A DNA stretch of 64,000 nt from Parcubacteria group bacterium Gr01-1014_31 (lineage in GTDB: Bacteria > Patescibacteriota > Patescibacteriia > Buchananbacterales > GWA2-38-13), in contig VMFR01000001.1 of NCBI GenBank assembly GCA_007376135.1, positions 270,554 through 334,553 of the forward strand. The letters are read 5' to 3'. The notes below the pieces were generated by a model. It saw nothing but the letters and a program-made list of their open reading frames with translations. It ran no database searches and was not told the DNA's origin. Every line of letters begins with the position of its first letter. Positions within the stretch are counted from its first letter, which is position 1. This document shows positions 10,239-63,012 of this stretch, in pieces. The position numbers and the translations under genes were made by a program.

Positions 10239-10620
10239 GGGGTCATTTCCGTACCCTCTTCTATTCCTCCCGCTCCGATGGCCATCGGAGCGGCTATCCT
10301 GGAGGTCAGAAATGAAAAATCCCCCGCGTTCCCTACGCAGCGGGGGGCGTTGTTTGGGTCTGAGCTCAAAAGGAGCATCCATCGCTACTTCACAGGTATT
10401 GGTGGGACCGGTCCGGCGGTAGGGAGCGCCAAAACCAGTATGGCAGGCACGGCAATTGCAGGAACAGTAGCAGTTCGCGTCAGTCCGTCAAGGTCGCGAC
10501 GACGGAACGGGTGTGCTAGGATGAAGTCACTATGCCCTGCGGGACAACGGGCCCATACATTCCAGTGACACCGCCAGTCTTTCCGAAATAACCAATTTTC
10601 CCAACTTCACTCACTCGACC

Positions 10621-10836
10621 GTGGTACTACTGGGTATGCGGACCGCCGGTATCATCATTCAGGCCCTGGGCGACGTCATCGTGGCCTTCACCGTGCTGCG
10701 AGTGCACCACCGTATGATGATGGAGCACAAGATCGACAACCGCGTCGTGCGCGTCATGCGACGTGAGCAGCAAGTGGGTTTTACCGGCATCGCCCTCATC
10801 ATCATCGGGACCTACCTGCAGGTGGCCGCCCCCTGA
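10621..10836 (+). CDS. small hypothetical membrane protein (2 TM)
   Basis: ORF followed by clean terminator; GTG start (ATG alt at 10636). Confidence 0.35.
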   Translation: MVLLGMRTAGIIIQALGDVIVAFTVLRVHHRMMMEHKIDNRVVRVMRREQQVGFTGIALIIIGTYLQVAAP

Positions 10837-18963: not shown

Positions 18964-19941
18964 TTATGTTTGTTTGATTAAAGGGGTTTGATTGAAAAGT
19001 CGTTGGGCGATCCGGAGCTTGGCGCTGCGGCTGCGGAAATTAGCAGCCACTTCGGCGTCACCCGGGACCACGGGCTTGCGGGTCACGACCGCGAGGTACG
19101 GCCCGCCGCAGGTACAGCGCGGCGCGTCACTGGGGCACCGGCAGGGCCGGGCATACTCGCGGAAGAACTGCTTGACGATACGGTCTTCCAGAGAGTGGTA
19201 GCTGATGACCGCGATCCGCGCCCCCGGCGGCAGGAGCGTCAGGGAGGAGTGCAGGGCGGCCTGGATATTCTCCAGTTCCTGGTTGACCGCGATACGCAGG
19301 GCTTGGAAGGTGCGGGTCGCCGGATGCCGGCGCGATGGTTTACCGTAGTGGTGGCGGTACACGCCCGCAACCACCGCGGCCAGCTGCGCCCCTTGGCGGA
19401 ACGGTTCGCGCTCGCGCAACCGGACGATGGCCGATGCGATCGGGCGCGCCAATGGCTCCTCGCCGTAGGTTCTCAAGACGTCGGCCAATTTGCCCACCGG
19501 CATGCGGTTCACCAGGTCCGCCGCGGTCGGTATCTCGGCCGTCGCATCGAAACGGAAGTCAAGACGCTCGGCGTCAAAGCCGAATCCCGCGTCCGGGGCG
19601 TCCAGCTGTAGCGACGATAGCCCCAAGTCCAACAGGCACCCGCCGCTCGGAGTGAATCCGAGCGTTCGGGCGACTTCCTCCATGGTTGTGAAATTGCCGT
19701 GCGCAACGAGCATCCGTTCCTTCATTGCGGGATCCTGAGAGATCACCTTGAGCCGCGCGACCGCGCTCGGGTCCCAGTCGATGGCCAGGACCTGTCCATC
19801 CGGCGCGGTGGCGGAAAGCAATGCCCGCGTATGCCCCCCGTTGCCGGCCGTGCCATCAATGAAATGCTTCCCGGGAGCGGCGGCCAGCCCGCTCACCACT
19901 TCCGCGACCAGCACCGGTTGATGGCCTTCAGGACGGGGCAT
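18964..19941 (-). CDS. rsmH: 16S rRNA (cytosine1402-N4)-methyltransferase
   Basis: HQPVLVAEVV..FIDGTAGNGGH..LDLGLSSLQLD motifs; internal ATG at 19939-19941 chosen (upstream 134 aa of the ORF is Arg/Gly-rich junk). Confidence 0.85.
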   Translation of the reverse strand: MPRPEGHQPVLVAEVVSGLAAAPGKHFIDGTAGNGGHTRALLSATAPDGQVLAIDWDPSAVARLKVISQDPAMKERMLVAHGNFTTMEEVARTLGFTPSGGCLLDLGLSSLQLDAPDAGFGFDAERLDFRFDATAEIPTAADLVNRMPVGKLADVLRTYGEEPLARPIASAIVRLREREPFRQGAQLAAVVAGVYRHHYGKPSRRHPATRTFQALRIAVNQELENIQAALHSSLTLLPPGARIAVISYHSLEDRIVKQFFREYARPCRCPSDAPRCTCGGPYLAVVTRKPVVPGDAEVAANFRSRSAKLRIAQRLFNQTPLIKQT

Positions 19942-20051
19942 ACCCCGTTCGACAATGGTCAAACATCGGTTTACTACCCGCCAAGAAATGAGGAGGCCAT
20001 TCGCAACTTGGGCACACTCCCCAACCGTCCATGGCCAAACGGGGCATAGCC

Positions 20052-20483
20052 CTACACTCCCAGCTCGCCCAGCGCTTCCGAAATTTCCACGCTCTTCCCT
20101 TCGGTCTGCTTCTTGTATTCGTTCCACTTGGCGGCGTCCCAGATCTCCAATCGGTTGTAGAGGCCGGCAATGACCACCTGCTTGCCCAATCCGGCGAACT
20201 GGCGCAAGTATTCGGGTACGCTGATGCGGCCCTGCCCGTCCGGGGAAACGTCCATCGCACCGGCCAGCATCAGCCGGGCGAATGCCCGCGTATTGGCCTT
20301 CGCCAAGGGCAACGCGGCCAGTTTCGCGACCAGCTTCCCCCACTCGGCCTGGGTGTAGACGAACAAACAGCTGTCCAGCCCCCGGGTAACGACCACGCCG
20401 CGCCGCAATACCGCGCGAAACTTCGCCGGCACGGCGATTCGTCCTTTTTCGTCAACGGAATGCTGGTATTCGCCGATGAACAT
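20052..20483 (-). CDS. mraZ: transcriptional regulator MraZ
   Basis: MFIGEYQHSVDEKGRIAVPAKFR duplicated MraZ domain signature; ATG at 20481-20483. Confidence 0.9.
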   Translation of the reverse strand: MFIGEYQHSVDEKGRIAVPAKFRAVLRRGVVVTRGLDSCLFVYTQAEWGKLVAKLAALPLAKANTRAFARLMLAGAMDVSPDGQGRISVPEYLRQFAGLGKQVVIAGLYNRLEIWDAAKWNEYKKQTEGKSVEISEALGELGV

Positions 20484-29265: not shown

Positions 29266-29278
29266 ATTCCTTTGTTTC

Positions 29279-29325
29279 CCTCTCCCCTTGTGGGAGAGGG
29301 TTAGGGTGAGGGGGATCACCCAACA
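29279..29325. repeat. 45-bp hairpin repeat (copy A) in rplJ 5' UTR; second copy at 41336-41384
   Basis: ccctctcccc-ttgt-gggagaggg + ttagggtgagggggat; >90% identical (reverse-complement sense) to 41336-41384. Confidence 0.55.
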
Positions 29326-34195: not shown

Positions 34196-35068
34196 TTAGG
34201 TTACGCCCGGGACGTTAGTAGTGGTGCCCCGGGGAAAATCATTGTCCAACGTAGCCGCATCCTCCTCCGACAGCTGCCAGCCCAGCGCGCCCAGGTCTTC
34301 CGCCAGGTGCGCAGGATTGGACGTCTTCACCAGCGCGACGACGTTTCGCTTGCTGATGACCCAGTTCACGGCCACCTGCGCGGGCGTCTTGCCGTACCGG
34401 GCGGCCAGGTCGTCCAGCAGCCGCTGGCCCCCGCGGGACAGCTCGCCGTACTTGCCGATGGGCCGGTAGGCCGTCACCAGGACCCCCTGCGCGCGGCAGT
34501 ATTCCAAAGTTCCGTTGTCCTCGTACGCCCGCGCCACCAGGCTGTAGTGGATCTGGTTGGTCGCCACGCCGGAGCGGGAATGGCGATTCGCTTCCTGCAG
34601 CAAGGGGACGTCAAAATTGCTAACGCCAATAAAGCGGATCAGCCCCTGCTGCACCAATTCATCCAGCGCGCCCATGGTTTCAGCCAGTGGGACATTCGGA
34701 TTTGGGCCATGAATGAGGTACAGGTCCAGGTAATCCACCCCCAGCCGGCGCAGACTGCCGCGGCAGGCGGCATGCACGTCATCAGGCCGCAAATGGTTCG
34801 GATAGACCTTGGAGGCGAGAAAGATTTGGTCGCGCGGCATATCGGCGATGGCCTCGGCGACCAATTCCTCGCAATGGCCCTCGGCGTACGCCTCGGCCGT
34901 ATCAACGTGGCGCAAACCCGCCGCCAGCGCCGCCCGGATGCCGGCAATGTCGCGCGCATCGTCGTTGCCGGGGTTGCGCTGCAGTTGGCCGCCCATCTGA
35001 TAGGTGCCAAACCCCAGGGCGGGCAGGGCAAGCAATTTCCCCTGCTTGAGGGGAATATCGTACTCCAT
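34196..35068 (-). CDS. aldo/keto reductase
   Basis: ALGFGTY, AEAYAEG, IHGPNP, LIRFIGVSNF motifs; GGAGGG RBS before ATG at 35066-35068. Confidence 0.8.
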   Translation of the reverse strand: MEYDIPLKQGKLLALPALGFGTYQMGGQLQRNPGNDDARDIAGIRAALAAGLRHVDTAEAYAEGHCEELVAEAIADMPRDQIFLASKVYPNHLRPDDVHAACRGSLRRLGVDYLDLYLIHGPNPNVPLAETMGALDELVQQGLIRFIGVSNFDVPLLQEANRHSRSGVATNQIHYSLVARAYEDNGTLEYCRAQGVLVTAYRPIGKYGELSRGGQRLLDDLAARYGKTPAQVAVNWVISKRNVVALVKTSNPAHLAEDLGALGWQLSEEDAATLDNDFPRGTTTNVPGVT

Positions 35069-35070
35069 AG

Positions 35071-40020: not shown

Positions 40021-40701
40021 TCAGGAAACAAGGGTGCCGCTGAATTTTTTTCCCGCCAAGAATGATCGCAAATTTGCCAAGTTGCTACCCCGCATGATGA
40101 CCAAACGGATGCCGCGCGACCTAGCCAGCTTGGACGCGACCGGGTCGAACGGCACGTGCGCACCCGGCTTCCAGACACCGCCGACAATGCGCTTGAACGC
40201 AGGCCAGGAGAGCGACGGCAAGGGTTTCGCGCCCTTGAACCGCTTGGGGTCGCGGTCGTAGACGTAGTCGATATTCGAAAGATTCACCACCGTGTCCACA
40301 CTGAACGTCATTGCCGCCAGGACCGCATCTTTGTCGGAACTGCAGCCGGGTTTCCAGCCTGAGCCGATGATGATCTTCTTGCCCGTGCGGATCTTTTTCG
40401 TGGGATTGTAGAGCAGCTGGTGCTCGGCGTCCTTGCCGAACACGTCGCGCACCAGCCACGCGTTGAGTTTGGTCGCCTCAATGCCCAGCCAGTCCAGCTC
40501 GGTGGAGGTCACTTTCGGATTGAGCCGACGCACGGCATTGACGTACTCGCGCGCGGTGTTGCCCCCGCCGCAGACGATGATGGCGCGGTTCCCGCCCCGC
40601 ACATAGCGCAACACGACCCGCCGGAACCCCGCGAGGAACTTCGCATCAACGCCGTCAGGGGTGATGAGCGACCCGCCCAGGGAAAAGACGATGGTCTTCA
40701 T
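40021..40701 (-). CDS. pyrH: uridylate (UMP) kinase, archaeal-type
   Basis: IVFSLGGSLI, IIVCGGGNTAR amino-acid-kinase fold motifs; 226 aa. Confidence 0.8.
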   Translation of the reverse strand: MKTIVFSLGGSLITPDGVDAKFLAGFRRVVLRYVRGGNRAIIVCGGGNTAREYVNAVRRLNPKVTSTELDWLGIEATKLNAWLVRDVFGKDAEHQLLYNPTKKIRTGKKIIIGSGWKPGCSSDKDAVLAAMTFSVDTVVNLSNIDYVYDRDPKRFKGAKPLPSLSWPAFKRIVGGVWKPGAHVPFDPVASKLARSRGIRLVIMRGSNLANLRSFLAGKKFSGTLVS

Positions 40702-40784
40702 GGAACTTGGAACATGAAACTTGGAACAAGCGGAACAACTAAAATTGTTCCCTGTTCCATGCTATGGGTTTCAAGATATCACCA

Positions 40785-40860
40785 GCCAAACAGTTTCCCC
40801 ACCTCCTCGGCCGTTTCGCGCTTGCGCGCGACGATGAAACGGTAATTCCACTTTTCGGGC
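40785..40860 (-). pseudogene. relic copy of the 3' end of the arginine-decarboxylase-like gene (last ~24 codons)
   Basis: ~88% nt identity to 41958-42035. Confidence 0.45.
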
Positions 40861-41263: not shown

Positions 41264-41335
41264 AAAGCGACAGCTTGATAAATCATTTTGAATTTTGCCC
41301 TGTCATTTTGCACTTTGACTTTTGCATTATGATTT

Positions 41336-41384
41336 TCCAATCCCCCTCACCCCAACCCTCTCCCGCAAGGGGAGAGGGAAAATA
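41336..41384. repeat. 45-bp hairpin repeat (copy B)
   Basis: aatccccctcaccccaaccctctcccgcaaggggagaggg; reverse complement ~93% identical to 29279-29325. Confidence 0.55.
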
Positions 41385-41394
41385 TTTTTAAAGC

Positions 41395-41483
41395 CGGAAC
41401 CCGGCAAGGAAAGCTCGGTCGATGCCGTCAGGGGCAATCAGCGACCCGCCGAGGGAAAAGATGATGGTACTATGGTTCATTAT
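41395..41483 (-). pseudogene. relic 5' fragment of pyrH (first ~29 codons, MNHSTIIFSLGGSLIAPDGID...)
   Basis: ~80% nt identity to pyrH 5' end 40615-40701; no downstream continuation. Confidence 0.5.
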
Positions 41484-41896
41484 TATGGAATCTGACAGCT
41501 ATATCTTAATGGCTGATCTCGTGTCGAAATAATTCTACAAAAAATTCTTTCGGGCTCAATATAATTATACTTACTGCAAAGACCATGAATATTTTCACTT
41601 TGTTGCGGGGTCACCTTACTACCGTCATTGTATAAATCGATCTGATCTGGTGAAAGTATACAGAAAGCTTCGCATTCATCTTCCCCACGACATATCTTTC
41701 CCGCATCAAAAGTTGGGAAAATGCACCGTTTTTCACCGTCGCTTGTGTATGTGACCCACCTCCCGCCTAGCCAAAAACATTGCCGCCCTTCCCGACCTAA
41801 GGATATCGCCAGCAGAAGCGAAAAAACTGCTACCAATAAAACCGTAGTGGTGATAAAAGCAACGACTACAATCAAAATAAACTTTCGTCGTTTCAT
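41483..41896 (-). CDS. Cys-rich small secreted/membrane-anchored protein, paralog 2
   Basis: N-terminal TM anchor, 8 Cys, same motif skeleton and same cattttg-repeat promoter as paralog 1. Confidence 0.5.
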   Translation of the reverse strand: MKRRKFILIVVVAFITTTVLLVAVFSLLLAISLGREGRQCFWLGGRWVTYTSDGEKRCIFPTFDAGKICRGEDECEAFCILSPDQIDLYNDGSKVTPQQSENIHGLCSKYNYIEPERIFCRIISTRDQPLRYSCQIP

Positions 41897-41966
41897 AGAG
41901 CTTTGTACAAAATCATCATTTTCTCATTTTGTCTGTCATTTTGCATTTTGACTTTTGCATTTTCAT

Positions 41967-43334
41967 TCACCAGCCAAACAACTTCCCGACCTCCTCGGCC
42001 GTTTCGCGCTTGCGGGCGACGATAATGTGGCCGTTCTCGGCGATGATCTTGGCCGGCGACGACAGCAGGCAGTGGTGGGACGCTAGCGGGTCCTGGTAGG
42101 CACCAGAGTCCAGGAAGGTGACATACAACGGCTCGGCCGTGCTGGATGGATCAAAATCCGGCAGCAGCACGTAGCTGTTCTGGCCGGTGTACTTGTCGTC
42201 GGAATCGCAGGAGCTGCCCGCCAGCCACGTTTTGACCAATTTCTTGGATTCCAGGTGCGCGGTCGGCAGCACGTGCCACTTCTGGTGGATGGCCCAGGTG
42301 TCCAGCAGGTCGTTCATGAAACTGCCATCGATGACGTACCACTTCTTGGCCGTACCCTTGGCGATGGCCTTGGAATCAATAACCTTGTAGATGGTGACTT
42401 GTGCCGGCGCCACAATGTAGCGCCCCCACTCCACCGTCAGGTTGGGGTGCGGGATGCCGTTGCGGTCGGCGAATTTCTTCATCATCCGCAACATCTGGCC
42501 GGCGAGGTTGGCGACCGAATAGCCGACCTTGCGGTCGTACGGGATGGGCATGCCGCCGCCGATATCGATGGTATCCAGGGTCGGGTTGATCTTCTTGAGT
42601 TTGGTGAACACCTTGAGCGCGTAGCGCAACGGCTGCAGGATGTCGGCCTGCTTTTCGATCTGCGAGCCGACGTGGTAGTGCAGGATCTTCAGATTGCGCA
42701 TGCGGCCCAGGTGCAGCAGCTCCGATTCCGAGAAACCGAAGCGGTCCACCTGCTTGTCCCACCGCGAGTCCACCGTTACCTGCGGCGGAATGTCCAGGCG
42801 TACGCCGATGTCGTACCGGCTCTGCCCGAACACGCCCACTTCGTTCGGACCCTCGATGATCGGCATGACGGACAGGCCGCGATGCTGCAGCTCGTCGATG
42901 AGCCGGATGTACTTGTCCGTCTTTGGTCCGTTGCACAGGATCTTGATCTTGGGGTTGAACGTTGCCTGCTCCCACAACCGCTTGACCAGCCAGAGCTCAT
43001 TGGCCGACCCCGTTTCCAAATTGGCGCCCTCCGACACCAGCGGCATAACCACTTCCTTGTTCTGGTTGACCTTCATCGGGTAGTGGTAGGAAAACCGCCC
43101 GCGGTACTTGAGCGCCTTGATCTGGGCATTGAACAGGTCCAGCAGGTCCTCCAGCCGTTCTTCCAGGATGAAAGGAAAAACAACCTCCAGCGGCGTGCCG
43201 AATTTCTCGGCCAGGTAGCGGAGATTGTACTGGTTGTTGCCCTCGCGCACCAGCAGGTCACCCTTCTTGTCTACGTCGAAGTACTGGGTGTTGAACTCCC
43301 GCATGCCCAGTTTCCAAAAACGTTTTCTGTTCAT
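41967..43334 (-). CDS. PLP-dependent decarboxylase, fold III (arginine/ornithine/diaminopimelate decarboxylase family; SpeA-like)
   Basis: HYPMKVN PLP-lysine motif, DIGGGMPIPY, SSCDSDDKY substrate-loop motif. Confidence 0.7.
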   Translation of the reverse strand: MNRKRFWKLGMREFNTQYFDVDKKGDLLVREGNNQYNLRYLAEKFGTPLEVVFPFILEERLEDLLDLFNAQIKALKYRGRFSYHYPMKVNQNKEVVMPLVSEGANLETGSANELWLVKRLWEQATFNPKIKILCNGPKTDKYIRLIDELQHRGLSVMPIIEGPNEVGVFGQSRYDIGVRLDIPPQVTVDSRWDKQVDRFGFSESELLHLGRMRNLKILHYHVGSQIEKQADILQPLRYALKVFTKLKKINPTLDTIDIGGGMPIPYDRKVGYSVANLAGQMLRMMKKFADRNGIPHPNLTVEWGRYIVAPAQVTIYKVIDSKAIAKGTAKKWYVIDGSFMNDLLDTWAIHQKWHVLPTAHLESKKLVKTWLAGSSCDSDDKYTGQNSYVLLPDFDPSSTAEPLYVTFLDSGAYQDPLASHHCLLSSPAKIIAENGHIIVARKRETAEEVGKLFGW

Positions 43335-45180: not shown

Positions 45181-45810
45181 TTACTTCCCCTCAATCAACG
45201 GCACAAACAGAAATCCAGGGTAAATCGTGGTGTTGTACTCATCCTTCGCTCTGCGCACGATGAGCCGCAGGTCCTCGTCCTGCGTCGGGATGACCATGCG
45301 GCCGCCAACCTTGAGCTGGGAACGCAGCGCCGACGGGACCTCGGCGGCAGCGGCGGCAACCTGAATTCTATCAAACGGAGCGTGCTCGGCAAGCCCCAGC
45401 GTCCCGTCGCCGCATACCATCGTCACGTTGGCATACCCGTACTTGGCGACGTTGCCCTGCCCGAACCGCTGCAGGTCCGGGATGCGCTCCACCGCGTACA
45501 CCTGCCCCGCCGGACCGACCAAGTGCGCTAGCAACGCCGTGGACCAGCCCGAGCCCGAACCGACATCCAGCACGCGGTCGCCCGACCGCACCGCCAGTAA
45601 TTGCAGCATGAACGCGACGGTCATCGGCTGCGAAATGGTCTGGCCGCCGCCGATGGGCAGCGGCGCGTTGACGGCCGACTCCATCTCCATGCCGGGAGGC
45701 AAAAAATCCTCCCGCCGAACGCGGCGGAAGGCCTGCTGCAGCGCCGGGTCGGAAAGGTACCCTTCGGCGACCAGCGCATCCACGAGACGGTCGTAGGCTG
45801 ATTTACCCAT
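45181..45810 (-). CDS. pcm: protein-L-isoaspartate O-methyltransferase
   Basis: GGGQTISQPMTVAFML and LDVGSGSGW SAM motifs; ATG at 45808-45810 lies inside the palindromic repeat. Confidence 0.85.
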   Translation of the reverse strand: MGKSAYDRLVDALVAEGYLSDPALQQAFRRVRREDFLPPGMEMESAVNAPLPIGGGQTISQPMTVAFMLQLLAVRSGDRVLDVGSGSGWSTALLAHLVGPAGQVYAVERIPDLQRFGQGNVAKYGYANVTMVCGDGTLGLAEHAPFDRIQVAAAAAEVPSALRSQLKVGGRMVIPTQDEDLRLIVRRAKDEYNTTIYPGFLFVPLIEGK

Positions 45811-45916
45811 ACCCCGTAGGACAACGGTCAAATACGTATCCTCGCGTAACCAACGATAATAGTTTTTTGTCCATGCTTCCGCCCTCCCTGGCAGTCCGTT
45901 GCACTACGGGGCATAC
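45808..45916. repeat. 109-bp palindromic MITE-like element (copy 1): 22-bp terminal inverted repeats CATACCCCGTAGGACAACGGTC flanking a ~65-bp core; proximal repeat supplies pcm start codon, distal repeat overlaps uppP stop
   Basis: terminal repeats 45808-45829 and 45892-45916; same architecture at 49287-49392. Confidence 0.65.
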
Positions 45917-46725
45917 GGAGCAAGCCAAGGCAGCAAGAGCAGCAGGACGCCCGCGACTGCCAAACGATAGTAGGCAAAAATATTGAGCGGCGCATGCTTC
46001 ACAAAGCGGAGCAGAAACCCTATCGCCCACCAGCCCGACACCAGAGCGACGACGAACCCTACCGCCAGCGGGAACAGCTCCTCCAGCGGCAGCGCCCCGG
46101 CAGTCGAAAGCTTCTTCACCCCAGCCCCAAGCACGACGGGCACCGACAGGAGGAAGGAGAATCGGGCCGCGGCCTCGCGCTGCAACCCCTGGCGCAACCC
46201 TGCTATAATAGTGATACCCGAACGGGAAACGCCGGGGATGAGGGCAAGCGCCTGGGCGCAACCGATGACAAGCGCGTCCTTCATCTTGACGGAATCCATC
46301 GTACGGGTGGGCCGTAGGTAGCGCTCGGCGGCGATCATCAGCAAAGCGACGACGGCCAGCGCGACGGCAACGCTCCCGACGCTGCGGAAGGTGGCGGCCA
46401 GCCAGTCCTCGGCCAAGGCGCCAACCAGCGCGGCGGGAACGGAGCCTGCAAGCAGCAGCCCGCCGAACCGCGCTTCGGGAGACCACGGACCGCGCCGCAG
46501 GACGGCGAGCGCCATCGCCCGAACAAGGGAAAGCAGCTCCTGCCGGAAGAAGCCGACGACCGCAATGGCCGTTGCCAAATGCAGGGCGACATCAAAGGTG
46601 ACGTCATCCTCCACGGAGAATTTGGTCAGCGCGTGCAGCACCACCAAGTGCCCGGAGCTGGAGACCGGCAGAAATTCGGTCAGCCCCTGTACCAGCCCGG
46701 CCAATGCGGCAATAAGAATATTCAT
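45904..46725 (-). CDS. uppP: undecaprenyl-diphosphate phosphatase
   Basis: GLTEFLPVSSSGHL and SRSGITI BacA/UppP motifs, 8 TM. Confidence 0.9.
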   Translation of the reverse strand: MNILIAALAGLVQGLTEFLPVSSSGHLVVLHALTKFSVEDDVTFDVALHLATAIAVVGFFRQELLSLVRAMALAVLRRGPWSPEARFGGLLLAGSVPAALVGALAEDWLAATFRSVGSVAVALAVVALLMIAAERYLRPTRTMDSVKMKDALVIGCAQALALIPGVSRSGITIIAGLRQGLQREAAARFSFLLSVPVVLGAGVKKLSTAGALPLEELFPLAVGFVVALVSGWWAIGFLLRFVKHAPLNIFAYYRLAVAGVLLLLLPWLAPYAP

Positions 46726-46745
46726 TCGCGTAGCGTAGCAACTCT

Positions 46746-47180
46746 ATGGGGTACACCCCGCTCATCATTCCGCTCGTCGTCGCGGTTTTGGCGCAGATCG
46801 TCAAACTTTCGGTGGACAAGATCAAGGGCAACTTGAACCTGAAAAATATCTGGCTGTCGTACGGCGGCATGCCCTCGGCGCATACGGCGTTCGCGGTATC
46901 GGCGGCAACGGTCGCCGGACTGTGGGAAGGCTGGGACTCACCGCTCTTTGCGGCTTGCGTCGTCTTCACGCTCATCATTATGCGCGACGCCGTCACCTTC
47001 CGCAACTACATGGGACAGCAGGGCCGCCTCTTCAACGCCTTGGTGGAAAAACTCCCGCCCGCGCAGCGTCCCGGGCTTCCCCGCTTCATGGAACGCGTCG
47101 GCCATACCGTCGGCGAAGTGGCGACCGGTGCGGCGTTCGGGGTCGCGCTGACGCTGCTACTGGACTGGCTCTGGCGCTGA
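46746..47180 (+). CDS. divergent PAP2-family membrane protein (DUF212)
   Basis: YGGMPSAHTA motif matching divergent PAP2 GGMPSSHSA. Confidence 0.65.
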   Translation: MGYTPLIIPLVVAVLAQIVKLSVDKIKGNLNLKNIWLSYGGMPSAHTAFAVSAATVAGLWEGWDSPLFAACVVFTLIIMRDAVTFRNYMGQQGRLFNALVEKLPPAQRPGLPRFMERVGHTVGEVATGAAFGVALTLLLDWLWR

Positions 47181-47301
47181 CGAGCAAAGAACGAAAAAGA
47201 ATTATGGCGCCCTCGCGGCGCCATTGTTTTTTTGCCGTCCCCATGCTAGCGTGGCGAACGGTTGCTCCGTTCTTTCCTCAACCCCGTTGCCGAGGTACAT
47301 C

Positions 47302-47493
47302 ATGTCTGACTCCCGATATGAAGACTCTCCCGACGAGCCCGAGAACGACGTGGAATACGAAGAAAGATGGGATGACGGCGGTGACGAGGATCCAGTTCTC
47401 GACCCCATCCCCTGGGCGCTCTTGCTCGGAATTCTCTGCATCTTGCTCGGGATCATTATCGGCGGCCTCTATATGCTCAGGTACGCCAAGTAG
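47302..47493 (+). CDS. small acidic protein with C-terminal TM (64 aa)
   Basis: ATG ORF; no RBS; weak. Confidence 0.25.
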   Translation: MSDSRYEDSPDEPENDVEYEERWDDGGDEDPVLDPIPWALLLGILCILLGIIIGGLYMLRYAK

Positions 47494-47570
47494 TGCGCCC
47501 ATGCTCCCCGATATTTCCCTCGTCACCCGACGAGGGCTTTTTTATTTCTTACACTCGGTACCTGGTAAAT

Positions 47571-47605
47571 CTTGACATTTTTTAAAAAAAATGATATTAT
47601 ACTTT
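47571..47605 (+). promoter_or_regulatory. sigma70-like promoter TTGACA-17-TATTAT
   Basis: cttgacattttttaaaaaaaatgatattatac. Confidence 0.5.
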
Positions 47606-47659
47606 TTCGTTCAGAACCTTGAAAACACGTTACTCCGCATTGCGGAAGAAAGGACTGCC

Positions 47660-48364
47660 ATGTTCAGTACGTTCATTCGCGCGCCCCTGTGGTTCGTGCT
47701 CGCGATGCGTTTCGCCGTCATCCCCCTGACCATGGGGACGCTGGTGCTGGCCGGTTACGCCGATACGGCAGCGCTCACGGCTGTTGGCCTGACCCTCCTC
47801 TACGGCATTCTGGCGCTGCTCAGCCACATCTACCACCTGGACATCCCGGCCTACCCCGACTGGCACCACAAGGCCGAGACGATCTCGGCCGGCGCGACGG
47901 CGGTGTTCGCCATCTGGCTGGTGCCGCGCTACCTCAGGATGGACCTGCTGGCCGCGGTAATGACCCTGGGTTGCGGCATCATCTGCGGCATTGCCGCAGT
48001 CAGTCTTCGGCGGTCGATGAAAAGCACCCCCCTTCTGCACTGGAACACCTTGGTGTTCCTGACGCCCGGAGCGCGCAACAGCCGGTTTTCGTCCGTGCGC
48101 GCCGCCATCATGCTGCTGGACCCCGTACGGCGGGCGTTTGTCGTACTCACGGTGGCGGCGACCTGCAACGTGCTGCAACGGCTCACGTACAGCCTCCAGG
48201 GCGTCAGCGGCTTCCGCAGCCAGGATGCGCGATGGGCGATGTTTATGCTCACCATCGCCTACGGCATGCTCGTACTGCTGTGGTGCGTCCAGTTCCACTG
48301 GCTCAGCTCCGTCGACCGGATACTCGCCCGCATCACCGCCCCATGGCGGCGCATTGCGCCCTGA
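47660..48364 (+). CDS. hypothetical integral membrane protein (6-7 TM)
   Basis: GGAAGAAAGGA RBS before ATG; hydrophobic helices. Confidence 0.5.
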   Translation: MFSTFIRAPLWFVLAMRFAVIPLTMGTLVLAGYADTAALTAVGLTLLYGILALLSHIYHLDIPAYPDWHHKAETISAGATAVFAIWLVPRYLRMDLLAAVMTLGCGIICGIAAVSLRRSMKSTPLLHWNTLVFLTPGARNSRFSSVRAAIMLLDPVRRAFVVLTVAATCNVLQRLTYSLQGVSGFRSQDARWAMFMLTIAYGMLVLLWCVQFHWLSSVDRILARITAPWRRIAP

Positions 48365-48389
48365 CCGGCATCGCCGGACCGTCCGACCA

Positions 48390-48431
48390 CCCGCCTCGAA
48401 TTCTGGAGCAATTCGGGGCGGTCTTTTTTTA
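48390..48431 (+). terminator. intrinsic terminator (overlaps 3' end of convergent fpg)
   Basis: ccgcc-tcgaattctggagcaattcg-gggcgg + T8. Confidence 0.5.
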
Positions 48432-49289
48432 TTTCTGGCAACACGGGCAGTAGTGCGTGCCGCGCTGGCCAACGACCGTTTTGACGATGGGGGTTTTACA
48501 GCGCCGGCACGGCTTCCCTTTTCGGCCATAGACGTTGAGGAACGGCGCCATGTACCCGGATTGCCCATTGACCCGCCGATACGTATCCCGGGTCGTTCCC
48601 TTGTGGCGCAGGGCCAGCTGCAGCACGCGCGGAATGCAACGGTACAATATCCGCAGATCGTTCTCGCGAATCGTGCGCACGCGGCGGGTCGGGCGCAGGC
48701 GGGCGCAAAAACAGCTCTCATCGGCGTAGATGTTGCCTACGCCCGCGATGCGTTCGGCATCCATCAGCACCTGTTTAATGGTCCGGTTGGGATAGCGGTG
48801 AGCCGCGCGGGCGAACGCCTCCCAGGTATAGGCCCCCGATAGCGGCTCCATGCCGAGGTGGGCGGTCAGCTCATGTAAACCGTCGGCATCCACCAGCTTC
48901 ACCCAGCCGAACTTGCGCTGGTCGTTGAAGTACAGCGTGCCGCCGCTGCGGAAACGGAAGATGACGTGCGTGAAAATGTTCGGCAGCACGCCGAGGTTGG
49001 GAATGGGATGCCCGCCGGACACCGTGCGGCCCGAGCGCGGGACGAATACCAGTTGCCCGGTCATTTTCAAATGGAACACCAAGTACCGCTGTCCGGGCAG
49101 CTCGCATACCAGCATCTTGGCCCGGCGCTTGACTGCCAGAATTTTTTTCCCGGCAAGTTCGCGCCGGAGCGCGGCTGCCGACGGGTGTGCCATCTTGGGC
49201 ACACGCACCTCCACCGCGCGCAGGGTTTGCACGAGCAGGCGGCGTTGCAGCTCGCGACGGATGGTTTCCACCTCCGGCAGTTCCGGCAT
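48429..49289 (-). CDS. mutM: formamidopyrimidine-DNA glycosylase
   Basis: N-terminal MPELPEVETIRR catalytic Pro2/Glu3, H2TH, C-terminal CxxC...CxxC zinc finger. Confidence 0.9.
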   Translation of the reverse strand: MPELPEVETIRRELQRRLLVQTLRAVEVRVPKMAHPSAAALRRELAGKKILAVKRRAKMLVCELPGQRYLVFHLKMTGQLVFVPRSGRTVSGGHPIPNLGVLPNIFTHVIFRFRSGGTLYFNDQRKFGWVKLVDADGLHELTAHLGMEPLSGAYTWEAFARAAHRYPNRTIKQVLMDAERIAGVGNIYADESCFCARLRPTRRVRTIRENDLRILYRCIPRVLQLALRHKGTTRDTYRRVNGQSGYMAPFLNVYGRKGKPCRRCKTPIVKTVVGQRGTHYCPCCQK

Positions 49290-49392
49290 ACCCCGTAGGA
49301 CAACGGTCGAACAAAAGGTGTTCGTGCATGACGTTATGATACCACTCGCTGCATTCGTCTTCCCAGTGAGTCCGTTGTCCTACGGGGCATAC
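49287..49392. repeat. 106-bp palindromic MITE-like element (copy 2); proximal inverted repeat supplies the fpg start codon
   Basis: terminal repeats 49287-49308 and 49369-49392 identical to copy 1 repeats; core differs but has the same length. Confidence 0.65.
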
Positions 49393-49464
49393 CCGGGAGT
49401 ACAATGGTCAACAGCAACTGGGCGCTCAAGTACGAAGTACCGAAAAAACGAAGCAAGGGTATCG

Positions 49465-49718
49465 CGAATATACTAGGACCATTGTACTACCGGGCATACT
49501 TCTTGGCACCACGCGGTTCCTCATGCTACGGTGCGTATACCCGTTCCCCTTGCCAGTTTGAAATGCCTGGGGGTCCTTGAGGGGCACTTGACCGGACGTT
49601 TGTTCGGATACCCCCAGGGCCTGGAAGTTGGCAACGTCAATATCCGCGGAGGTGATTTGGCGCCGGGGAACAATGGGTGGGGTGTGACGCATGCTGCGAA
49701 ACACCCCTTTTTTTGTTT
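49465..49718 (+). ncRNA. candidate sRNA/structured RNA ending at intrinsic terminator (ggggtgt..acacccc + T9 at 49683-49718)
   Basis: no credible ORF; long-range stem gcctgggggt...acccccagggc; terminator read directly; promoter not confidently placed. Confidence 0.25.
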
Positions 49719-50008
49719 CCTCGCGTCTTCCACAGGTTCTCCACCGTCCATGCACCGACAAGCCGTTGACCCCGCCGGCGGCGCGGGCTACCCTGCGTGC
49801 AGATGATGTTCCGGCGACCCGGGTACTAGTGTGGAGGCGACGAACGTTTTTCGCGGCGATGGCAGCCTTCGGGCTCCCACCAAAATCCGCGGACTCTGTT
49901 CGCACATCGGTCGCTCGCCATGAGCGTATCGCGCCTGCTCTGCAGGGATACCCATCGCGAAGCCTACTTCGCCCCACGCATGGCGCCGCCCGCGCCGACC
50001 ATTATCGA

Positions 50009-50043
50009 GGGCCCGAGCTCCGCTCGCGGCCCTTTTTCTTTTT
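50009..50043 (+). terminator. intrinsic terminator
   Basis: gggcc-cgagctccgctcgc-ggccc + T-run. Confidence 0.45.
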
Positions 50044-50082
50044 GTCTTGACAACGAGGGACCCGCAGGCCTAAGGTGTCGGG

Positions 50083-50367
50083 CAGATGGTGTTCTTTCCG
50101 CGAATGTCGCCGTCGGTAACTTGTGGGTCGGCTGGCAGAGGCAGTGACGCTGCGTCTCCTGGACGCATGAGAGGGCGTTGCCGCCCATCCGTACTGCCTT
50201 GGAGAATCCTAGGTTTCTCCAGCTGATCCGCCCGCTCTCTGGCGGGCCACACGGCGCCGGGGCTACTTCGCCCCCGGTATCAGCAACCGACCGAGTTGCT
50301 CTCTGCGGTATTCAACGTATCGAACATTGTCGGAGGGGCTGTCGTCCGCGGCCCCTCCTTTTTCTTT
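50083..50367 (+). ncRNA. candidate ~285-nt sRNA: promoter TTGACA-18-TAAGGT (50047-50076) to terminator ggaggggctgtcgtccgcggcccctcc + T-run (50332-50367)
   Basis: clean promoter and terminator pair in a 1-kb ORF-free GC-rich intergenic region. Confidence 0.35.
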
Positions 50368-50438
50368 ACAAAAAAACGGCGCGGTGCGCAGCCGAGCGCC
50401 AGCTACTTACCTACCGCCCTACCGACTACCTACTGGTC

Positions 50439-51359
50439 TTACAGCCACTTGCGCCAGACGAAAACGCCGAAGGTGCCGAGCGACGAAATGACCATCAGCG
50501 CAGCGATGAGATTGAAGGCGTTGGGGTCCTCGGCGTACGGCAGCCGCACGTTCATCCCGTAAATGCTGGACACGAGCAGCGGCACCGTCAGGATGACGGT
50601 CATGGAGGTCAGGAATTTCAGGGTCTTGTTCAGGTTGTTGGAAAGGATGGTAGAGTACGCCTCGCGGATGTTGGTGATGGAATGGATGCTCTCCTGGCAG
50701 AATTTCAGGACTTGGTTGGCGTCCACCAGCAGGTCCTGGATGAGGTCCTGGTCGTGCTCCACCAGGGGCACCACTTTGCCGGAGGCGATGCGCTCGTAGA
50801 CGGCGACGTTGGACAGCAACGACGCGTTGAAATCGTTGAGCACCTCCTCGTGCTCCACCAGATTGACGATGTCGCGGTTCCGCAGCTGGCGCAATTGGAC
50901 CCGCTGGCGCGACACGCTTTTGGCGATGGCCTTGATATGCAGGTAGAACGCCCGCACGATCTCGTTGAAGACGTAGATGAGAAATTTTGACTTTTCGGTC
51001 GTGAATACGTCCAGACGCTTGGCGACGAACCGGTTGAGGATGGGCGTGTCGTGGAGCGAAATGGTCACCAGGTACGACCCGGTGGTGATGATGGTCAGCG
51101 GCCGGGTGTCGATCTTGCCGTGGCGCTCCACTGGCACGCGGATGTAGACATACAGGGTGCCATTCTCCTGCTCGACGCGGGGCAGCTCGTGCGGGTCCGC
51201 GCTGTCCTCGAGCAGGTCCCGCGACAGCTCGCAGCGTTCCGCCAGGGCGTCCAGCTCGTGCGCGGTCGGCGCGACGGCGTTGACCCAGCTGCCCACCTCA
51301 AGGTGGTCCAGCGTCCGCAGCTCGGTCTCCTTCTCCGTTTTTTTGAAGATCTGGATCAT
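50439..51359 (-). CDS. corA: magnesium/cobalt transporter CorA
   Basis: C-terminal two TM with YGMN motif (IYGMNVRLPYAE); internal ATG at 51357-51359 chosen. Confidence 0.85.
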   Translation of the reverse strand: MIQIFKKTEKETELRTLDHLEVGSWVNAVAPTAHELDALAERCELSRDLLEDSADPHELPRVEQENGTLYVYIRVPVERHGKIDTRPLTIITTGSYLVTISLHDTPILNRFVAKRLDVFTTEKSKFLIYVFNEIVRAFYLHIKAIAKSVSRQRVQLRQLRNRDIVNLVEHEEVLNDFNASLLSNVAVYERIASGKVVPLVEHDQDLIQDLLVDANQVLKFCQESIHSITNIREAYSTILSNNLNKTLKFLTSMTVILTVPLLVSSIYGMNVRLPYAEDPNAFNLIAALMVISSLGTFGVFVWRKWL

Positions 51360-56344: not shown

Positions 56345-56365
56345 AGTAATGGCACCTTTTTAGAA
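56345..56365. repeat. GGCACC hairpin repeat family, copy A
   Basis: ggcacctttttagaaaaggtg. Confidence 0.45.
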
Positions 56366-56564
56366 AAGGTGTGGTTTAATCCGATACTATTTTCGAATTC
56401 TTCAAAGGGCGAGAATAAAAATCATGCGTTCGTTAACATTGACGAAATCACGACTTTATGGTACTCTTCGCTGCCACTCATCTTGTCGATAAGTGGAAGT
56501 GCTTTCGGCACATTTACATTTCAAGTGTTCGGTAACTGGCCCTTTGACGAAAGGAGGTGGCCAG

Positions 56565-57974: not shown

Positions 57975-57986
57975 TTACAAAAACTG

Positions 57987-58008
57987 GCGCCTTTCTGGGA
58001 AAGGTGCC
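57987..58008. repeat. GGCACC hairpin repeat family, copy B
   Basis: ggcgcctttctgggaaaggtgcc. Confidence 0.45.
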
Positions 58009-58616: not shown

Positions 58617-58638
58617 ACTGCCCCCATTATACGCTTTT

Positions 58639-58661
58639 GGCACCTTTTCAGAAAAGGTGCC
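58639..58661. repeat. GGCACC hairpin repeat family, copy C (perfect palindrome)
   Basis: ggcaccttttcagaaaaggtgcc. Confidence 0.5.
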
Positions 58662-58738
58662 ACTGAAAATCGGCTTTCTTGGTACCTCTCTAAGAAAGGT
58701 GGCAATACTACTGCCCGTGGCATTTTTTCTGTGTATTA

Positions 58739-59182: not shown

Positions 59183-59320
59183 CTATTTCCCGTGACACTT
59201 CTTGAACCCTTCGACAAACTCAGGGTAGGCTTCTTCCCTCACCGTCCCGCCGTTGGCGGGACTCCGCTCGTTCCTACCAATTTCAAGCTTACTTTCCATG
59301 GCAATGCTAATACTAATTGC
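59183..59320 (+). repeat. ~135-bp dispersed repeat, copy 1 (translates spuriously to ...PFDKLR...TPLVPTNFK.TF.GNA)
   Basis: ~80% nt identity to 60068-60200. Confidence 0.55.
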
Positions 59321-60067: not shown

Positions 60068-60200
60068 ATCACTTACCGTGACATCTCTTGAACCCCGTAC
60101 CAGTCCGCCAGCGGCGGTCAACTACGGGGCAAGCTTCTTCCCTCACCCATCCTTCGACAAGCTCAGGACTCCGCTCGTTCCTACTAATTTCAAGCCTACT
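60068..60200 (+). repeat. ~135-bp dispersed repeat, copy 2
   Basis: shares cgtgaca.ctcttgaaccc, cttcttccctcacc, actccgctcgttcctac.aatttcaag.ctactttcc.tggcaatgct with copy 1. Confidence 0.55.
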
Positions 60201-63012
60201 TTCCGTGGCAATGCTTGAATTTCACTGGCGTACCATCCGCCTTCTTCGCTCCACAAGGACAGGGGTCGTTGCGACCGACACGCGTGCCCTCGTAGTGGGT
60301 TTGCGCGTCGTCCACGTTAGACACCGTTTCGCGCTTGGCGACTTCGCGCGCCTGCGGCGTGTCGTCGTTTGAGGACGCGGCTGCCGCCACAGCCGATGGG
60401 CCGCGCTGCATTTCTTTTGAGGGTGCGGTGAACTGCATCGCGCCCAACCGCGGCTGTTGCATCAGCATCTGGCCGGCGACGCCGACCTTGTAGATGCTGT
60501 AGACGATCTGCTTGTTGACGATGTTGGTCAGCTCCGTGAACATGCGATAGGACTCGCGCTTGTACTCCACCAGCGGGTCCAGCTGGCCGTACCCGCGCAG
60601 CCCGATACCCGTACGCAAGTGGTCCATGGAATCCAGGTGGTCCATCCAGAGGGTGTCCATAGAGCGCAGCATCACGGCTTTTTCAATTTTGCGCATCGCC
60701 AGCTTGTCGCCGGTTGCAGCTTCGGCCGCCCGTTCCAGCTGGTCGTAGTGGGCAACCGCCAATTCTTTCAGGTAATCGATGACGCGGGTACGCGCCTCGG
60801 CGTCGGCCATCTTGTCGCCGGCCTTGCCGCGCCGAAGTTCCAATTGCTGCACGGCATCAGACGGCAGCGGGAAAATGGTCTTTGCGACCTCCGCCACCTC
60901 TTTCAAATCCCAGTCCTGCTGGTTTTCGCCTGCCGTGTGAAACCCGACGAACTGCGCGATTTCCTCGGCAACCAGTGAAAGCACGTCGTCGCGGAGGTTG
61001 TCGCCGTGCAAAATTTTCTTGCGGCGGCCGTACATGAGCTCGCGATGCTTGTTGACCACGTCGTCGTACTCCACCAAATGTTTGCGCAGGTCGAAGTTGT
61101 GCCCTTCCACTTTCTTCTGCGCGGCTTCCAGCGAGCGCGACACCATCCGGTTCTCAATGGGCATGTCTTCGGGGATCTTCAAGGTCTCCATGATGCCGCG
61201 GATACGGTCGGAGCCGAATATCTTCATCAGGTCGTCCTCGGTGCTCAAGAAGAATTGCGAAGAGCCCGGATCGCCCTGGCGGCCTGCGCGACCGCGCAGC
61301 TGGTTGTCGATTCTCCGCGACTCATGCCGCTCGGTGCCGATGATGTGCAGGCCCCCCAGCTCGCACACGACCTTGCCTTCCTCGGCGTCCGGCGGGTTAC
61401 CGCCCAGGATGATGTCCACGCCGCGGCCGGCCATGTTCGTGGCAATGGTCACCGCGCCCCGGCGGCCAGCCTGCGCGATGATCTGGCCTTCCTTTTCGTG
61501 CTGTTTGGCGTTCAGGAGCTGCGCCTCAATTCCCGATTGCGCCAGCAGCTGGCCCAGCAGTTCGTTCTTTTCAATGGAAATGGTACCCACCAGCACGGGC
61601 TGGCCCTTGGCATGGCGCGCTTTTATCTCGGCGACCACGGCCTGATATTTTCCGCCTTCGGTTTTATAGATGCGGTCGGGCAAGTCGCCGCGCACCATCG
61701 GCTTGTTGGTGGGCACCGTAACGACTTCCAAGTCGTAAATTTTTGAGAATTCCTCGGCTTCGGTGGCGGCGGTCCCGGTCATGCCGGCCAGTTTGTTGTA
61801 CAAGCGAAAAAGATTTTGGAACGTAACGGTGGCAAGTGTGCGGCTTTCCTGCTGGACCTTGACCCCTTCCTTGGCTTCGATGGCTTGGTGCAGCCCTTCG
61901 GAGTAGCGGCGGCCGTGCATCATGCGGCCGGTGAACTCGTCCACGATGATGATCTCGCCGTCCTTGACCACGTACTCCTTGTCCAGATGGTAGAGGGATT
62001 GCGCGCGCACCGCCTGTTCGATGTGGTGGACCAGGTCCATCCCGCCCTCGGCGTAGAGGTTGGATACCCCCAGCGCTTTCTCCACCTTGGTAATGCCTAC
62101 CTCGGTCAAGGTGGCCGCGCGCATCTTCAAGTCCACGTTGTAGTCGGTGTTCTCCACCAGAGTGCCGGCGATCTGGGCGAACTGCCGGTAACGATCCGAC
62201 GACTCGGCATCGGGGGCGGAAATGATGAGCGGAGTTCGCGCCTCATCAATGAGGATGGAGTCCACCTCGTCCACGATGGCGTAGTGCAGGCCGCGTTGGA
62301 CCTCCTGGACGGGAGCGCCGGCCATGTTGTCGCGCAGGTAGTCAAAGCCGAATTCGTTGTTCGTGCCGTAGGTGATGTCGCAGCCGTACGCTTCGCGCCG
62401 CGGCACGGGCCGCAGGTAGCTGTACTCCACGCGGAACGCGCCGGTCGTGTCGCGGACTTTGTCGCGCTCCTCCTCGGTGGGTTTTTGCTCCTCCACCTTG
62501 GTCTGCGTCTGGTAGGTCGGATCGTAGCGGAACGACGTTTCGTGCTGGATACAGCCGACCGTCATCCCGAGCGCGTGGTAGATCTGCCCCATCCAGACCG
62601 CATCGCGCCGCGCCAGGTAGTCGTTGACCGTTACCAGGTGACAACCCTTGCCCTCCAGCGCGTTGAGGTACATCGGCAAGGTTGCGGTCAACGTCTTTCC
62701 TTCACCCGTGCGCATCTCGGCGATCTGCCCGCGGTGCAGGACCATGCCGCCGAGCAGCTGCACGTCAAAATGGCGCTGGCCCAGCGTCCGAGAAGCTGCT
62801 TCCCGCACGGCCGCAAACGCTTGGGGCAGCAGCGCGTCCAACGCTTCGCCTTTCACGAGACGCTCGCGCAGGACCGCGGTTGCGCCCGACAATTCCGCGT
62901 CGGAAAACGCGCGGTATTTTTGCTCCAACGCGTTGACCTGGGCAACGATGGGCTCCAGAGTCTTCACGACGCGGGCGTTGGCATCACCGAAAATTTTGGT
63001 CAAAAGCGACAT
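60196..63012 (-). CDS. secA: preprotein translocase ATPase SecA
   Basis: full-length 938 aa with Walker A/B, preprotein cross-linking and helical scaffold domains, C-terminal zinc finger CPCGAKK..HCHG. Confidence 0.95.

Follow-up and report, generated by a model that had tools for sequence, protein, structure and literature searches.

A stretch of 64,000 nucleotides from Parcubacteria group bacterium Gr01-1014_31, a groundwater organism (contig VMFR01000001.1; hereafter the window), contains five copies, E1 to E5, of a short palindromic element whose last bases supply the start codon of the gene that follows. Our data show that these elements are insertions and that the right-hand copy of a flanking TATG repeat serves as the start codon. 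The reading we favour, to which we give a probability of about 0.6, is that they form a non-autonomous mobile family in Parcubacteria resembling MITEs (miniature inverted-repeat transposable elements), which inserts at S-TATG-S (S is G or C) and leaves TATG on both sides.

Copies in the window and anatomy of the element

The copies, and the two genes at which the element was initially seen, are the following.

10531..10638, plus strand: E1, 108 bp, decayed copy
19939..20048, minus strand: E2, 110 bp, occupies the mraZ-rsmH spacer
45808..45915, minus strand: E3, 108 bp, between uppP and pcm; proximal TATG 45808-45811, proximal arm 45812-45829, core 45830-45893 (64 nt), distal arm 45894-45911, distal TATG 45912-45915
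49287..49391, minus strand: E4, 105 bp, directly before fpg; proximal TATG 49287-49290, proximal arm 49291-49308, core 49309-49369 (61 nt), distal arm 49370-49387, distal TATG 49388-49391
49388..49498, minus strand: E5, 111 bp, in tandem upstream of E4, with TATG 49388-49391 common to both; proximal arm 49392-49409, core 49410-49476, distal arm 49477-49494, distal TATG 49495-49498
45181..45810, minus strand: pcm, 209 aa from the element-borne ATG at 45808-45810; Pfam PCMT
48429..49289, minus strand: fpg, ATG at 49287-49289; Pfam Fapy_DNA_glyco aligned from residue 1

An initial annotation of the window, made from its letters, had described two copies, in the regions of 45808 and 49287. Both are real, with partner arms at 45894-45916 and 49370-49392, but they are two of five. 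The 22-mer CATACCCCGTAGGACAACGGTC is exact in both (45808-45829 and 49287-49308, its only exact occurrences, with 0 matches in shuffled sequences), while the perfect 22-bp terminal inverted repeat that it was taken to form is in fact 18 bp long and paired at 15/18 positions in E3 and 17/18 in E4. Nor are the two cores different sequences of equal length, as had been thought: with 64 and 61 nt they are diverged homologues. E5 belongs to a subfamily distinct from that of E4, three positions being changed on both of its arms and the cores being unrelated. E2 (arms paired at 14/18 positions) lies between the stop codon of mraZ (TAG, 20052-20054) and the ATG of rsmH (19939-19941). E1 is paired at 12/18 positions and has lost its stem (folding z +1.0); it terminates on the ATG (10636-10638) of a 66-aa open reading frame (ORF), and a -10-like box, TGcTAGGAT (10514-10522), is found 8 nt upstream of its distal TATG. 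E3 has an orthologous copy at locus L074 of a sister metagenome-assembled genome (MAG), and its distal arm contains the uppP stop codon (TAG, 45904-45906), an overlap that had been recognized from the start.

The census of copies, here and in other genomes, was taken with looser pattern searches, a covariance model and a hidden Markov model (HMM). Throughout the family the length is 105-116 bp. Each element consists of 18-bp terminal inverted repeats, CCCCGTAGGACAACGGAC ... GACCGTTGTCCTACGGGG, enclosing a poorly conserved and unstructured core of ~65 nt, and a 4-bp direct repeat, TATG, flanks both ends. Read in gene sense (minus strand), the pcm and fpg copies run TATG, CCCCGTAG(G/T)(A/G)CAACGGAC, a core of 61-64 nt, GACCGTTGTCCTACGGGG, TATG; the outer four bases (CATA on the plus strand, TATG in gene sense) are the direct repeat and lie outside the palindrome. 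Among the 29 complete copies tabulated, 436 of 522 arm positions are Watson-Crick paired. Two arm positions are systematically mismatched, and the same two positions distinguish the arms family-wide. Covariation connects the two arms and was not seen within a single arm, whose only internal palindrome is CCGT...ACGG with a 4-bp stem. The arms carry the tetranucleotide GTAG, and ACAAC/GTTGT motifs are located at their inner rather than outer ends. Core identity between copies has a median of 49% and reaches 71% in the best paralogous pair. All 29 complete copies share one orientation relative to the gene, and for every copy the sense strand scores far above the antisense with both the covariance model and the HMM. 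Other boundary readings (TA, AT, 3-bp or 6-bp duplications, or IS3-like TG...CA ends) were rejected, as they leave the ends asymmetric or are contradicted by the flanks.

Start codons donated by the element

That the element provides the ATG of both pcm and fpg was part of the initial annotation and is borne out by the Pfam alignments and by the gene calls of the public contig, made independently, which start both genes at the element-borne ATG. The catalytic nucleophile of Fpg is the proline that follows the initiator Met, and so the element-borne ATG must be the true start of fpg. The further idea that both proteins begin with repeat-encoded residues is correct for the Met codon only; the later residues are native. 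Pfam also confirms uppP (BacA), rsmH (MraW from residue 7) and mraZ. The Fpg protein shows 100% identity to that of Gr01-1014_31 encoded on a contig of 539 kb.

With tandems and orthologues counted once, there are 26 independent sites, and at 24 of them the element ends exactly on the ATG of a gene (the other two, L042 and L057b, are not at gene starts). When each complete copy was translated from its last three bases, these proved to be the start codon (ATG) of an ORF no shorter than 66 aa at 4/4 sites in the window and in 14/16 copies of another genome, the MAG JAUSGZ01. The ORFs begun in this way in the two genomes include those for QueA, Pcm, TpiA, Fba, ribosomal protein S20 (rpsT), MraY, DJ-1-like, aldo/keto reductase, glycosyltransferase, MerR-like, NrnA-like and membrane proteins, to which metagenome contigs and four other MAGs add HIT, S21 (rpsU), YqeY, HrcA and UvrD/PcrA. 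Their N-termini look like the canonical N-termini of the respective families. The flanking genes form housekeeping operons (mraZ-rsmH, tpiA-fba, rpsU-yqeY), and one metagenome contig reads gene-element-gene-element-gene-element-gene. At the tpiA-fba junction of the sister MAG (L083:2677-3657) and of a JGI contig (L095) tpiA runs through the old ATG of the fba element and stops in the core. Excision of the element in silico puts tpiA in frame with fba with no intervening stop, so here the element now donates the stop codon of tpiA, as it does for uppP.

Filled and empty sites

Comparison with relatives that lack the element, which had been suggested at the outset, was possible at several sites. 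In the sister MAG (L074) the start of fpg is bare, ...cgcc-TATG-ccggaattgccg; in the window it is filled twice, TATG-E5-TATG-E4-TATG-ccggaactgccg. The same site is bare in L096, L098 and L099 (G-TATG-C) and in L101 (C-CATG-C). The opposite situation exists at a reductase gene, where the sister MAG carries an element (L002:5136-5243) and the window counterpart is empty:

35066..35069, minus strand: unoccupied target C-TATG-G, start codon of an aldo/keto-reductase-like gene

For the uppP-pcm junction, removal of E3 plus one TATG in silico predicts that uppP would end in ...Y-G-stop and overlap the pcm ATG by 8 nt. Locus L098 matches this prediction: it reads cgc-TATGGATAA, its gene calls overlap by 8 nt and it has no element at this junction. 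Empty sites are seamless. Tandem pairs occur at 3/26 sites and their members come from different subfamilies, which points to independent hits on one site. Filled and empty sites, together with the 8-nt overlap in a relative, identify the elements as insertions of a MITE-like element. Of the explanations offered in the initial annotation, a MITE that inserted at gene starts is thus the one that agrees with the inverted ends, the 4-bp duplication, the many and tandem copies and the filled and empty sites.

Occurrence in other genomes

An arm-pattern scan of one genome per species yielded the MAG JAUSGZ01 ('E14_metabat.bin.16') as the sole other genome with repeated arms, and the 14 loci fetched from it hold 17 copies. 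A scan of JGI metagenomes gave 10 copies on five contigs. Full-length single copies were detected by HMM in four more MAGs, labelled Uhrbacteria (43% GC), Moranbacteria (44% GC), Saccharibacteria and Gammaproteobacteria; the last label is probably wrong. In total there are >35 copies, in several genomes and at unrelated genes. Six relative loci (Fpg 67-69% identical, about 67 kb) contain one degenerate copy only, L098:5713-5821, which ends on GTG, the start of a NUDIX gene, and has TAGG as its distal 4-mer; Fpg of this locus is 67% identical to that of the window. No match to the element was found in the viral contigs and phage genomes scanned. At gathering thresholds Rfam gave no match anywhere in the window, and at E up to 1, in searches that covered 45700-49650 and 49400-50500, it gave none on the elements. 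It should be noted that MAG assembly breaks at elements, one contig beginning inside a copy.

The possibility of an ordinary conserved 5' untranslated region or a chance repeat had the small number of copies first seen in its favour, and nothing else. It is already refuted by the absence of matches in shuffles, by the number of copies at unrelated genes and by the empty sites in relatives, and we give it practically no weight.

Target choice and orientation

At 26/26 sites G or C precedes the distal 4-mer, and at 26/26 G or C follows the proximal one, even in the 43%-GC genome; other flank positions are not conserved. The proximal 4-mer is TATG at 23/26 sites, CATG at 2 and CTTG at 1; the distal one is TATG at 16/26 and otherwise CATG, CTTG, CCTG, TCTG or TATA, with TAGG in the orthologous copy of L095. 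Wherever the proximal 4-mer differs, the distal one copies the variant (CATG/CATG twice, CTTG/CTTG once), and these co-varying pairs at three sites favour a real 4-bp duplication.

Occupancy was counted over 156 kb after excision of the elements in silico. Sites of the form S-TATG-S were occupied in 17/200 cases versus 2/2063 for other S-YNTG-S. Start-like S-TATG-S sites, defined as open for at least 60 codons downstream and with a stop no more than 40 codons upstream, were occupied at 13/60 versus 4/140 for the rest (odds ratio 9.4, p 5e-5). Purging of lethal intragenic insertions must account for a part of this start-site excess.

Part of the same evidence would suit another course of events, in which the same mobile element is handled by an orientation-specific mover and there is no true target duplication. 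In one variant a tyrosine or serine recombinase would pair the palindromic joint ...CTACGGGG-TATG-CCCCGTAG... with any S-TATG-S core; in the other a single-strand HUH enzyme, similar to those of IS200/IS605 or to the REP-associated tyrosine transposases (RAYTs) of repetitive extragenic palindromic (REP) sequences, would paste the element, with its own terminal TATG, 3' of YATG. The 4-mer is indeed asymmetric and hardly varies, and every copy has the same polarity. Tandems with one common TATG would be expected as well, since the junction stays a good target. The distal 4-mer, far more variable than the proximal, would then be flank and the proximal one the element's own; the empty sites are seamless; and the arms contain GTAG, a tetranucleotide conserved in REP sequences. 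However, the three co-varying pairs fit duplication better, and the ends of IS200/IS605 and REP sequences are separate sub-terminal hairpins, not long terminal inverted repeats, whereas each arm of the present element has just its 4-bp internal palindrome. Besides, none of the copies was seen to have a gene for a recombinase, a RAYT or a Y1 transposase in its vicinity. We therefore regard such a mover as conceivable but rather doubtful.

RNA folding and selection

Most copies, taken as RNA, are predicted to pair over 20-22 bp into a stem that encloses an open loop, at -37 to -52 kcal/mol when the element is folded by itself. The long stem including the start codon that the initial annotation had proposed does fold when flanks are included, with -48 kcal/mol for the pcm copy (z -3.2) and -60 kcal/mol for the fpg copy (z -6.4). 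The foot of this stem is weak, being made of four pairs of UAUG against UAUG (U-G, A-U, U-A, G-U). The cores are no more stably folded than shuffled sequences (z -0.8 to +1.8), and an internal hairpin with an AATTAT loop, noticed by eye in some copies, was ruled out by its shuffle-level folding energy.

A 5' hairpin of this kind might be a cis-regulatory RNA of the host that sequesters the start codon, so that translation of its genes is jointly controlled through temperature, a helicase, RNase III or some binding protein; mobility would then be only the means by which the regulon grew. This would agree with a very stable stem that always takes in the AUG, with arm sequences kept across distant lineages of the candidate phyla radiation (CPR; 43-63% GC), with the pcm copy, far better conserved than adjacent synonymous sites, and with a length of 105-116 bp kept even in a decayed copy. 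Yet the genes share no common theme. A control module for repair enzymes, as suggested initially by pcm and fpg, is not borne out, there being copies at rsmH, a small ORF, queA, tpiA, fba, rpsT and others; a repair regulon is contradicted also by fpg of the sister MAG, which carries no element, and sister-genome orthologues without the element are known for other genes too. Selection for RNA pairing was not detected in the arm mismatches, 14 of which are G-U in sense and 16 G-U only in antisense. In four orthologous pairs the arms diverge by 4.2% and the cores by 6.1%, so resident arms are not specially protected and evolve like cores, and the copies at tpiA and fba have diverged as synonymous sites have. 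The stem of E1 is lost, there is no Rfam family match and two copies reside where no gene starts. Taken together, we find a regulatory role of this type improbable. Selfish DNA fits better than regulatory RNA, given the lack of wobble strand bias, the unstructured cores and the decayed copies. Most simply, the family may be read as one that is long-lived and turns over slowly, with descendants left only by intact-ended copies.

Expression of genes behind the element

At about 11 sites a -35/-10 pair ends 5-12 nt upstream of the distal ATG; examples are TTGACA-17-TACGAT and the -10 boxes TATACT, TAGACT and TGcTAGGAT. With such spacing to the old ATG, these genes were probably leaderless or nearly so before insertion. 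At about 10 sites the upstream gene stops a few nt from the distal ATG or inside the element. No conserved promoter of sigma-70 type was found inside the element. Three candidates were rejected: a TACAAT box, which is restricted to arm variants that have T at one position; TTGACC where core and arm meet, which as a -35 has no suitably spaced -10; and TGTACT, 7 nt upstream of the ATG, which as a -10 lacks the essential A. With a promoter upstream and none inside, the mRNA most likely starts before the element or continues through it, as far as can be judged from sequence. A conserved leader peptide or coupled upstream ORF was considered too and dismissed: the frames from the old ATG have 8-49 codons, are not conserved and stop at scattered positions. 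The old (distal) ATG is, moreover, mutated in about a third of copies, and for both reasons a coupled leader peptide is no general solution.

Boxes of the -10 type (TATACT, TAGACT, TAGGAT, TATGCT) end 5-12 nt before many ATGs, often with TTGACA 17 nt upstream (window 10514-10522 and 20691-20725; L045, L057, L083, L092, L094). Such spacing suggests frequent use of leaderless or near-leaderless mRNAs in this lineage of Parcubacteria. An anti-Shine-Dalgarno motif was detected in only 48% of Parcubacteria, some of which are believed to form no Shine-Dalgarno (SD) helices (PMC9297842).

Proposed explanation

In the mobile-family reading, the mover would be an enzyme acting in trans, with a 4-bp-duplicating transposase as the likeliest candidate. 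If the target TATG holds a start codon, the right-hand copy would restore ATG at its native place, and the gene would survive. Insertion would displace the old ATG, the promoter or the upstream stop by about 105 nt upstream, after which the old ATG would often decay. The ends would stay alike because only intact-ended copies reproduce. The native promoter would transcribe the element as the first ~105 nt of the mRNA, giving a long hairpin with the AUG at its foot. Translation might then proceed in two ways: either RNase III cuts the hairpin away, as with Correia hairpins in Neisseria, or the stem is opened at its weak foot, next to the proximal AUG, by a ribosome that finishes the upstream gene or binds the 5' end. 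The limited occurrence of the anti-Shine-Dalgarno motif and the action of RNase III on Correia hairpins make such tolerance plausible, and initiation in many Parcubacteria is believed not to depend on an SD helix.

Several points weigh against this explanation. No transposase or recombinase gene bounded by element ends was found in the 64 kb and about 190 kb of related loci, and neither solo nor widely spaced arms were found in the window, the 14 MAG loci and loci L091-L101. There are no young paralogues, as the best (71%) and median (49%) core identities show, so it is the filled and empty sites alone that speak for recent activity. Purging of intragenic insertions cannot explain why non-coding TATG sites are near-empty (gene calls being crude here), and it leaves the single orientation unexplained. 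From a symmetric cut-and-paste enzyme one would expect a palindromic target and insertions of either orientation, whereas the target seen here is asymmetric and the polarity single. Finally, the orthologous pcm copy is identical at 102/107 positions, with sharp boundaries, compared with 63-81% at flanking third codon positions, which hints at constraint on, or transfer of, that copy.

A further idea is that the element homes to initiation codons in one orientation, through a gene-start-specific cue beyond S-TATG-S, and is translationally 'transparent'. Transparency might arise because the ends of the hairpin are adjacent, so that the native 5' end or a terminating ribosome would still reach the AUG at the 3' foot. 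The route would be shunt-like, or a structure-specific RNase would trim the mRNA to a near-leaderless form. We put this forward as a tentative proposal, more apt to be wrong than right.

Implications

Bacterial MITEs and REP sequences normally gather in harmless intergenic DNA. The present family sits almost only on gene starts, among them the starts of genes for ribosomal proteins, glycolysis and the cell wall, and its hosts have genomes of about 0.5-1 Mb and unusual ribosomes. If the start bias comes from the insertion mechanism, target choice of a new kind would be at work. Should selection be its cause, these bacteria would be able to initiate at an AUG buried at the foot of a 20-bp GC-rich stem, about 105 nt from the promoter, which bears directly on initiation in lineages where the anti-Shine-Dalgarno is often missing. 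Transparent homing, if true, would be a novel strategy by which selfish DNA persists within essential genes, beside introns, inteins and bypass elements, and would provide a natural probe of SD-independent initiation in CPR bacteria. For annotation, gene callers should expect start codons, and stops of upstream genes, that are donated by repeats.

Other features of the window

Upstream of the fpg elements, between them and corA, lies about 0.9 kb without a credible ORF (window 49500-50438; L074:4604-5568). Over most of its length it is 80-94% identical between the two genomes, above neighbouring third codon positions, with mismatches free of 3-nt periodicity (44/51/47) and many indels that are not multiples of 3. 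It has 62% GC and many short hairpins, its corA-proximal 450 nt fold with z about -3, and Rfam gave no match in it. Possibly, this is an undescribed large non-coding RNA or regulatory region. Relatives have gene-free gaps of 0.5-1.8 kb before fpg.

A sub-threshold Rfam match to sraL (47109-47230, plus strand; 30.4 bits versus a gathering threshold of 39, E 4.5e-4) falls in a stretch at 46.7-48.4 kb that has short or overlapping ORFs only, and has probably arisen by chance. Several other repeats were noted, the first three entries below making up another repeat system of the window:

29275-29316 and 41340-41381: inverted pair of 42 nt, 95% complementary, containing a GC-rich hairpin
40646-40835 and 41419-42023: duplicated gene segment, 86-93% identical
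41282-41339 and 41915-41972: repeated AT-rich upstream block
56350-56371, 57985-58006, 58638-58659 and 58680-58701: small hairpin TGGCACCTTTTnAGAAAAGGTG, four times
59259-59308 and 60166-60215: 50-nt direct repeat, 94% identical, about 900 bp apart

Comparison with known systems

Four of the five features that characterize a MITE were found, namely small size (under about 300 bp) with no coding capacity, inverted ends, flanking duplication and a polymorphic multi-copy distribution, with the reservation that the flanking 4-mer could instead be a fixed core at which a site-specific reaction takes place. As to the fifth, no autonomous parent turned up in the window, the 14 MAG loci and loci L091-L101. 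The only transposase-like ORF of the window was considered for this role:

20727-21590, plus strand: IS1595/ISXO2-like transposase ORF (Pfam PF12762, E 2e-36), adjoining mraZ

It was rejected as the parent, as it has no matching ends and no detectable terminal inverted repeats. This ORF may be domesticated or degenerate, and it is preceded by a leaderless-type promoter, TTGACA-17-TATGCT-8-ATG. Literature searches on start-codon-associated MITEs and on leaderless translation in Patescibacteria returned no description of the element.

The Correia elements (CREE/NEMIS) of Neisseria are about 100-155 bp long, with ~26-bp terminal inverted repeats, a short duplicated target and hundreds of copies beside genes, alter the expression of their neighbours and are co-transcribed as hairpins that are bound and cleaved or protected by RNase III (PMC2649163). 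The present element is like them in being short, non-coding and gene-adjacent, with terminal inverted repeats and a duplicated target. Correia elements differ in their TA duplication, their conserved core with an IHF site, the promoters that their ends can create and the absence of any tie to start codons or to orientation. The Correia repeat is of the 26-bp TATAGCGGATTAACAAAAATCAGGAC type. Here both the ends and the TATG repeat are different, the median core identity is 49%, no internal promoter was found and 24/26 sites are start codons.

Rickettsia palindromic elements (RPE), reportedly described by Ogata et al. in 2000, are said to be selfish and to persist inside essential genes of a reduced genome. 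Both families would thus be palindromic selfish DNA tolerated in essential genes whose product stays usable, but the RPE is in frame and translated, whereas the present element is outside the frame and only restores the initiation codon.

REP sequences and REPINs consist of short inverted arms that form a hairpin, carry GTAG, exist in many copies and are mobilised by RAYT transposases. The likeness lies in the conserved inverted arms, the less conserved spacer, the hairpin, GTAG in the arms and the multiple copies. Each REP is, however, a strong palindrome, and REPINs are mostly located between convergent genes, show no flanking duplication and have a REP-flanked RAYT gene, none of which was found for the present element. 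Its arms, with a 4-bp internal stem only, are no palindromic unit of ~20-35 nt, and no RAYT gene flanked by repeats occurs in the sequence examined.

Elements derived from IS200/IS605 insert in one orientation 3' of a fixed tetra- or pentanucleotide, have sub-terminal hairpins and lack both terminal inverted repeats and a duplication. The fixed 4-mer and single orientation of the present element resemble these (PATE), while its long terminal inverted repeats and co-varying flanks do not. IStrons, which carry a group I ribozyme several hundred nt long, are tolerated in genes because they are removed from the mRNA; the core described here has 65 nt and is unstructured. Integron attC sites differ as well: their RYYYAAC/GTTRRRY boxes are outer ones and they lie 3' of cassettes in an intI-linked array, whereas here the ACAAC/GTTGT motifs are at the inner arm ends and the neighbours are housekeeping genes.

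Translation across a hairpin has precedents in the split ribosome-binding sites of T4 genes 38 and 25, in the bypass of T4 gene 60 and the mitochondrial 'byp' elements, and in the shunt of cauliflower mosaic virus. By analogy, signals 5' of a stable hairpin might act on the codon just 3' of it, and, as in 'byp', the same codon flanks a mobile hairpin on both sides, which may be a similarity of form. At about 105 nt the present hairpin is far larger, and in several copies the upstream ATG has been lost.

The element is therefore not a Correia element, a REP or REPIN, an attC site or a member of a known RNA family. Its unusual property is a near-exclusive and oriented residence on start codons, those of essential genes included.

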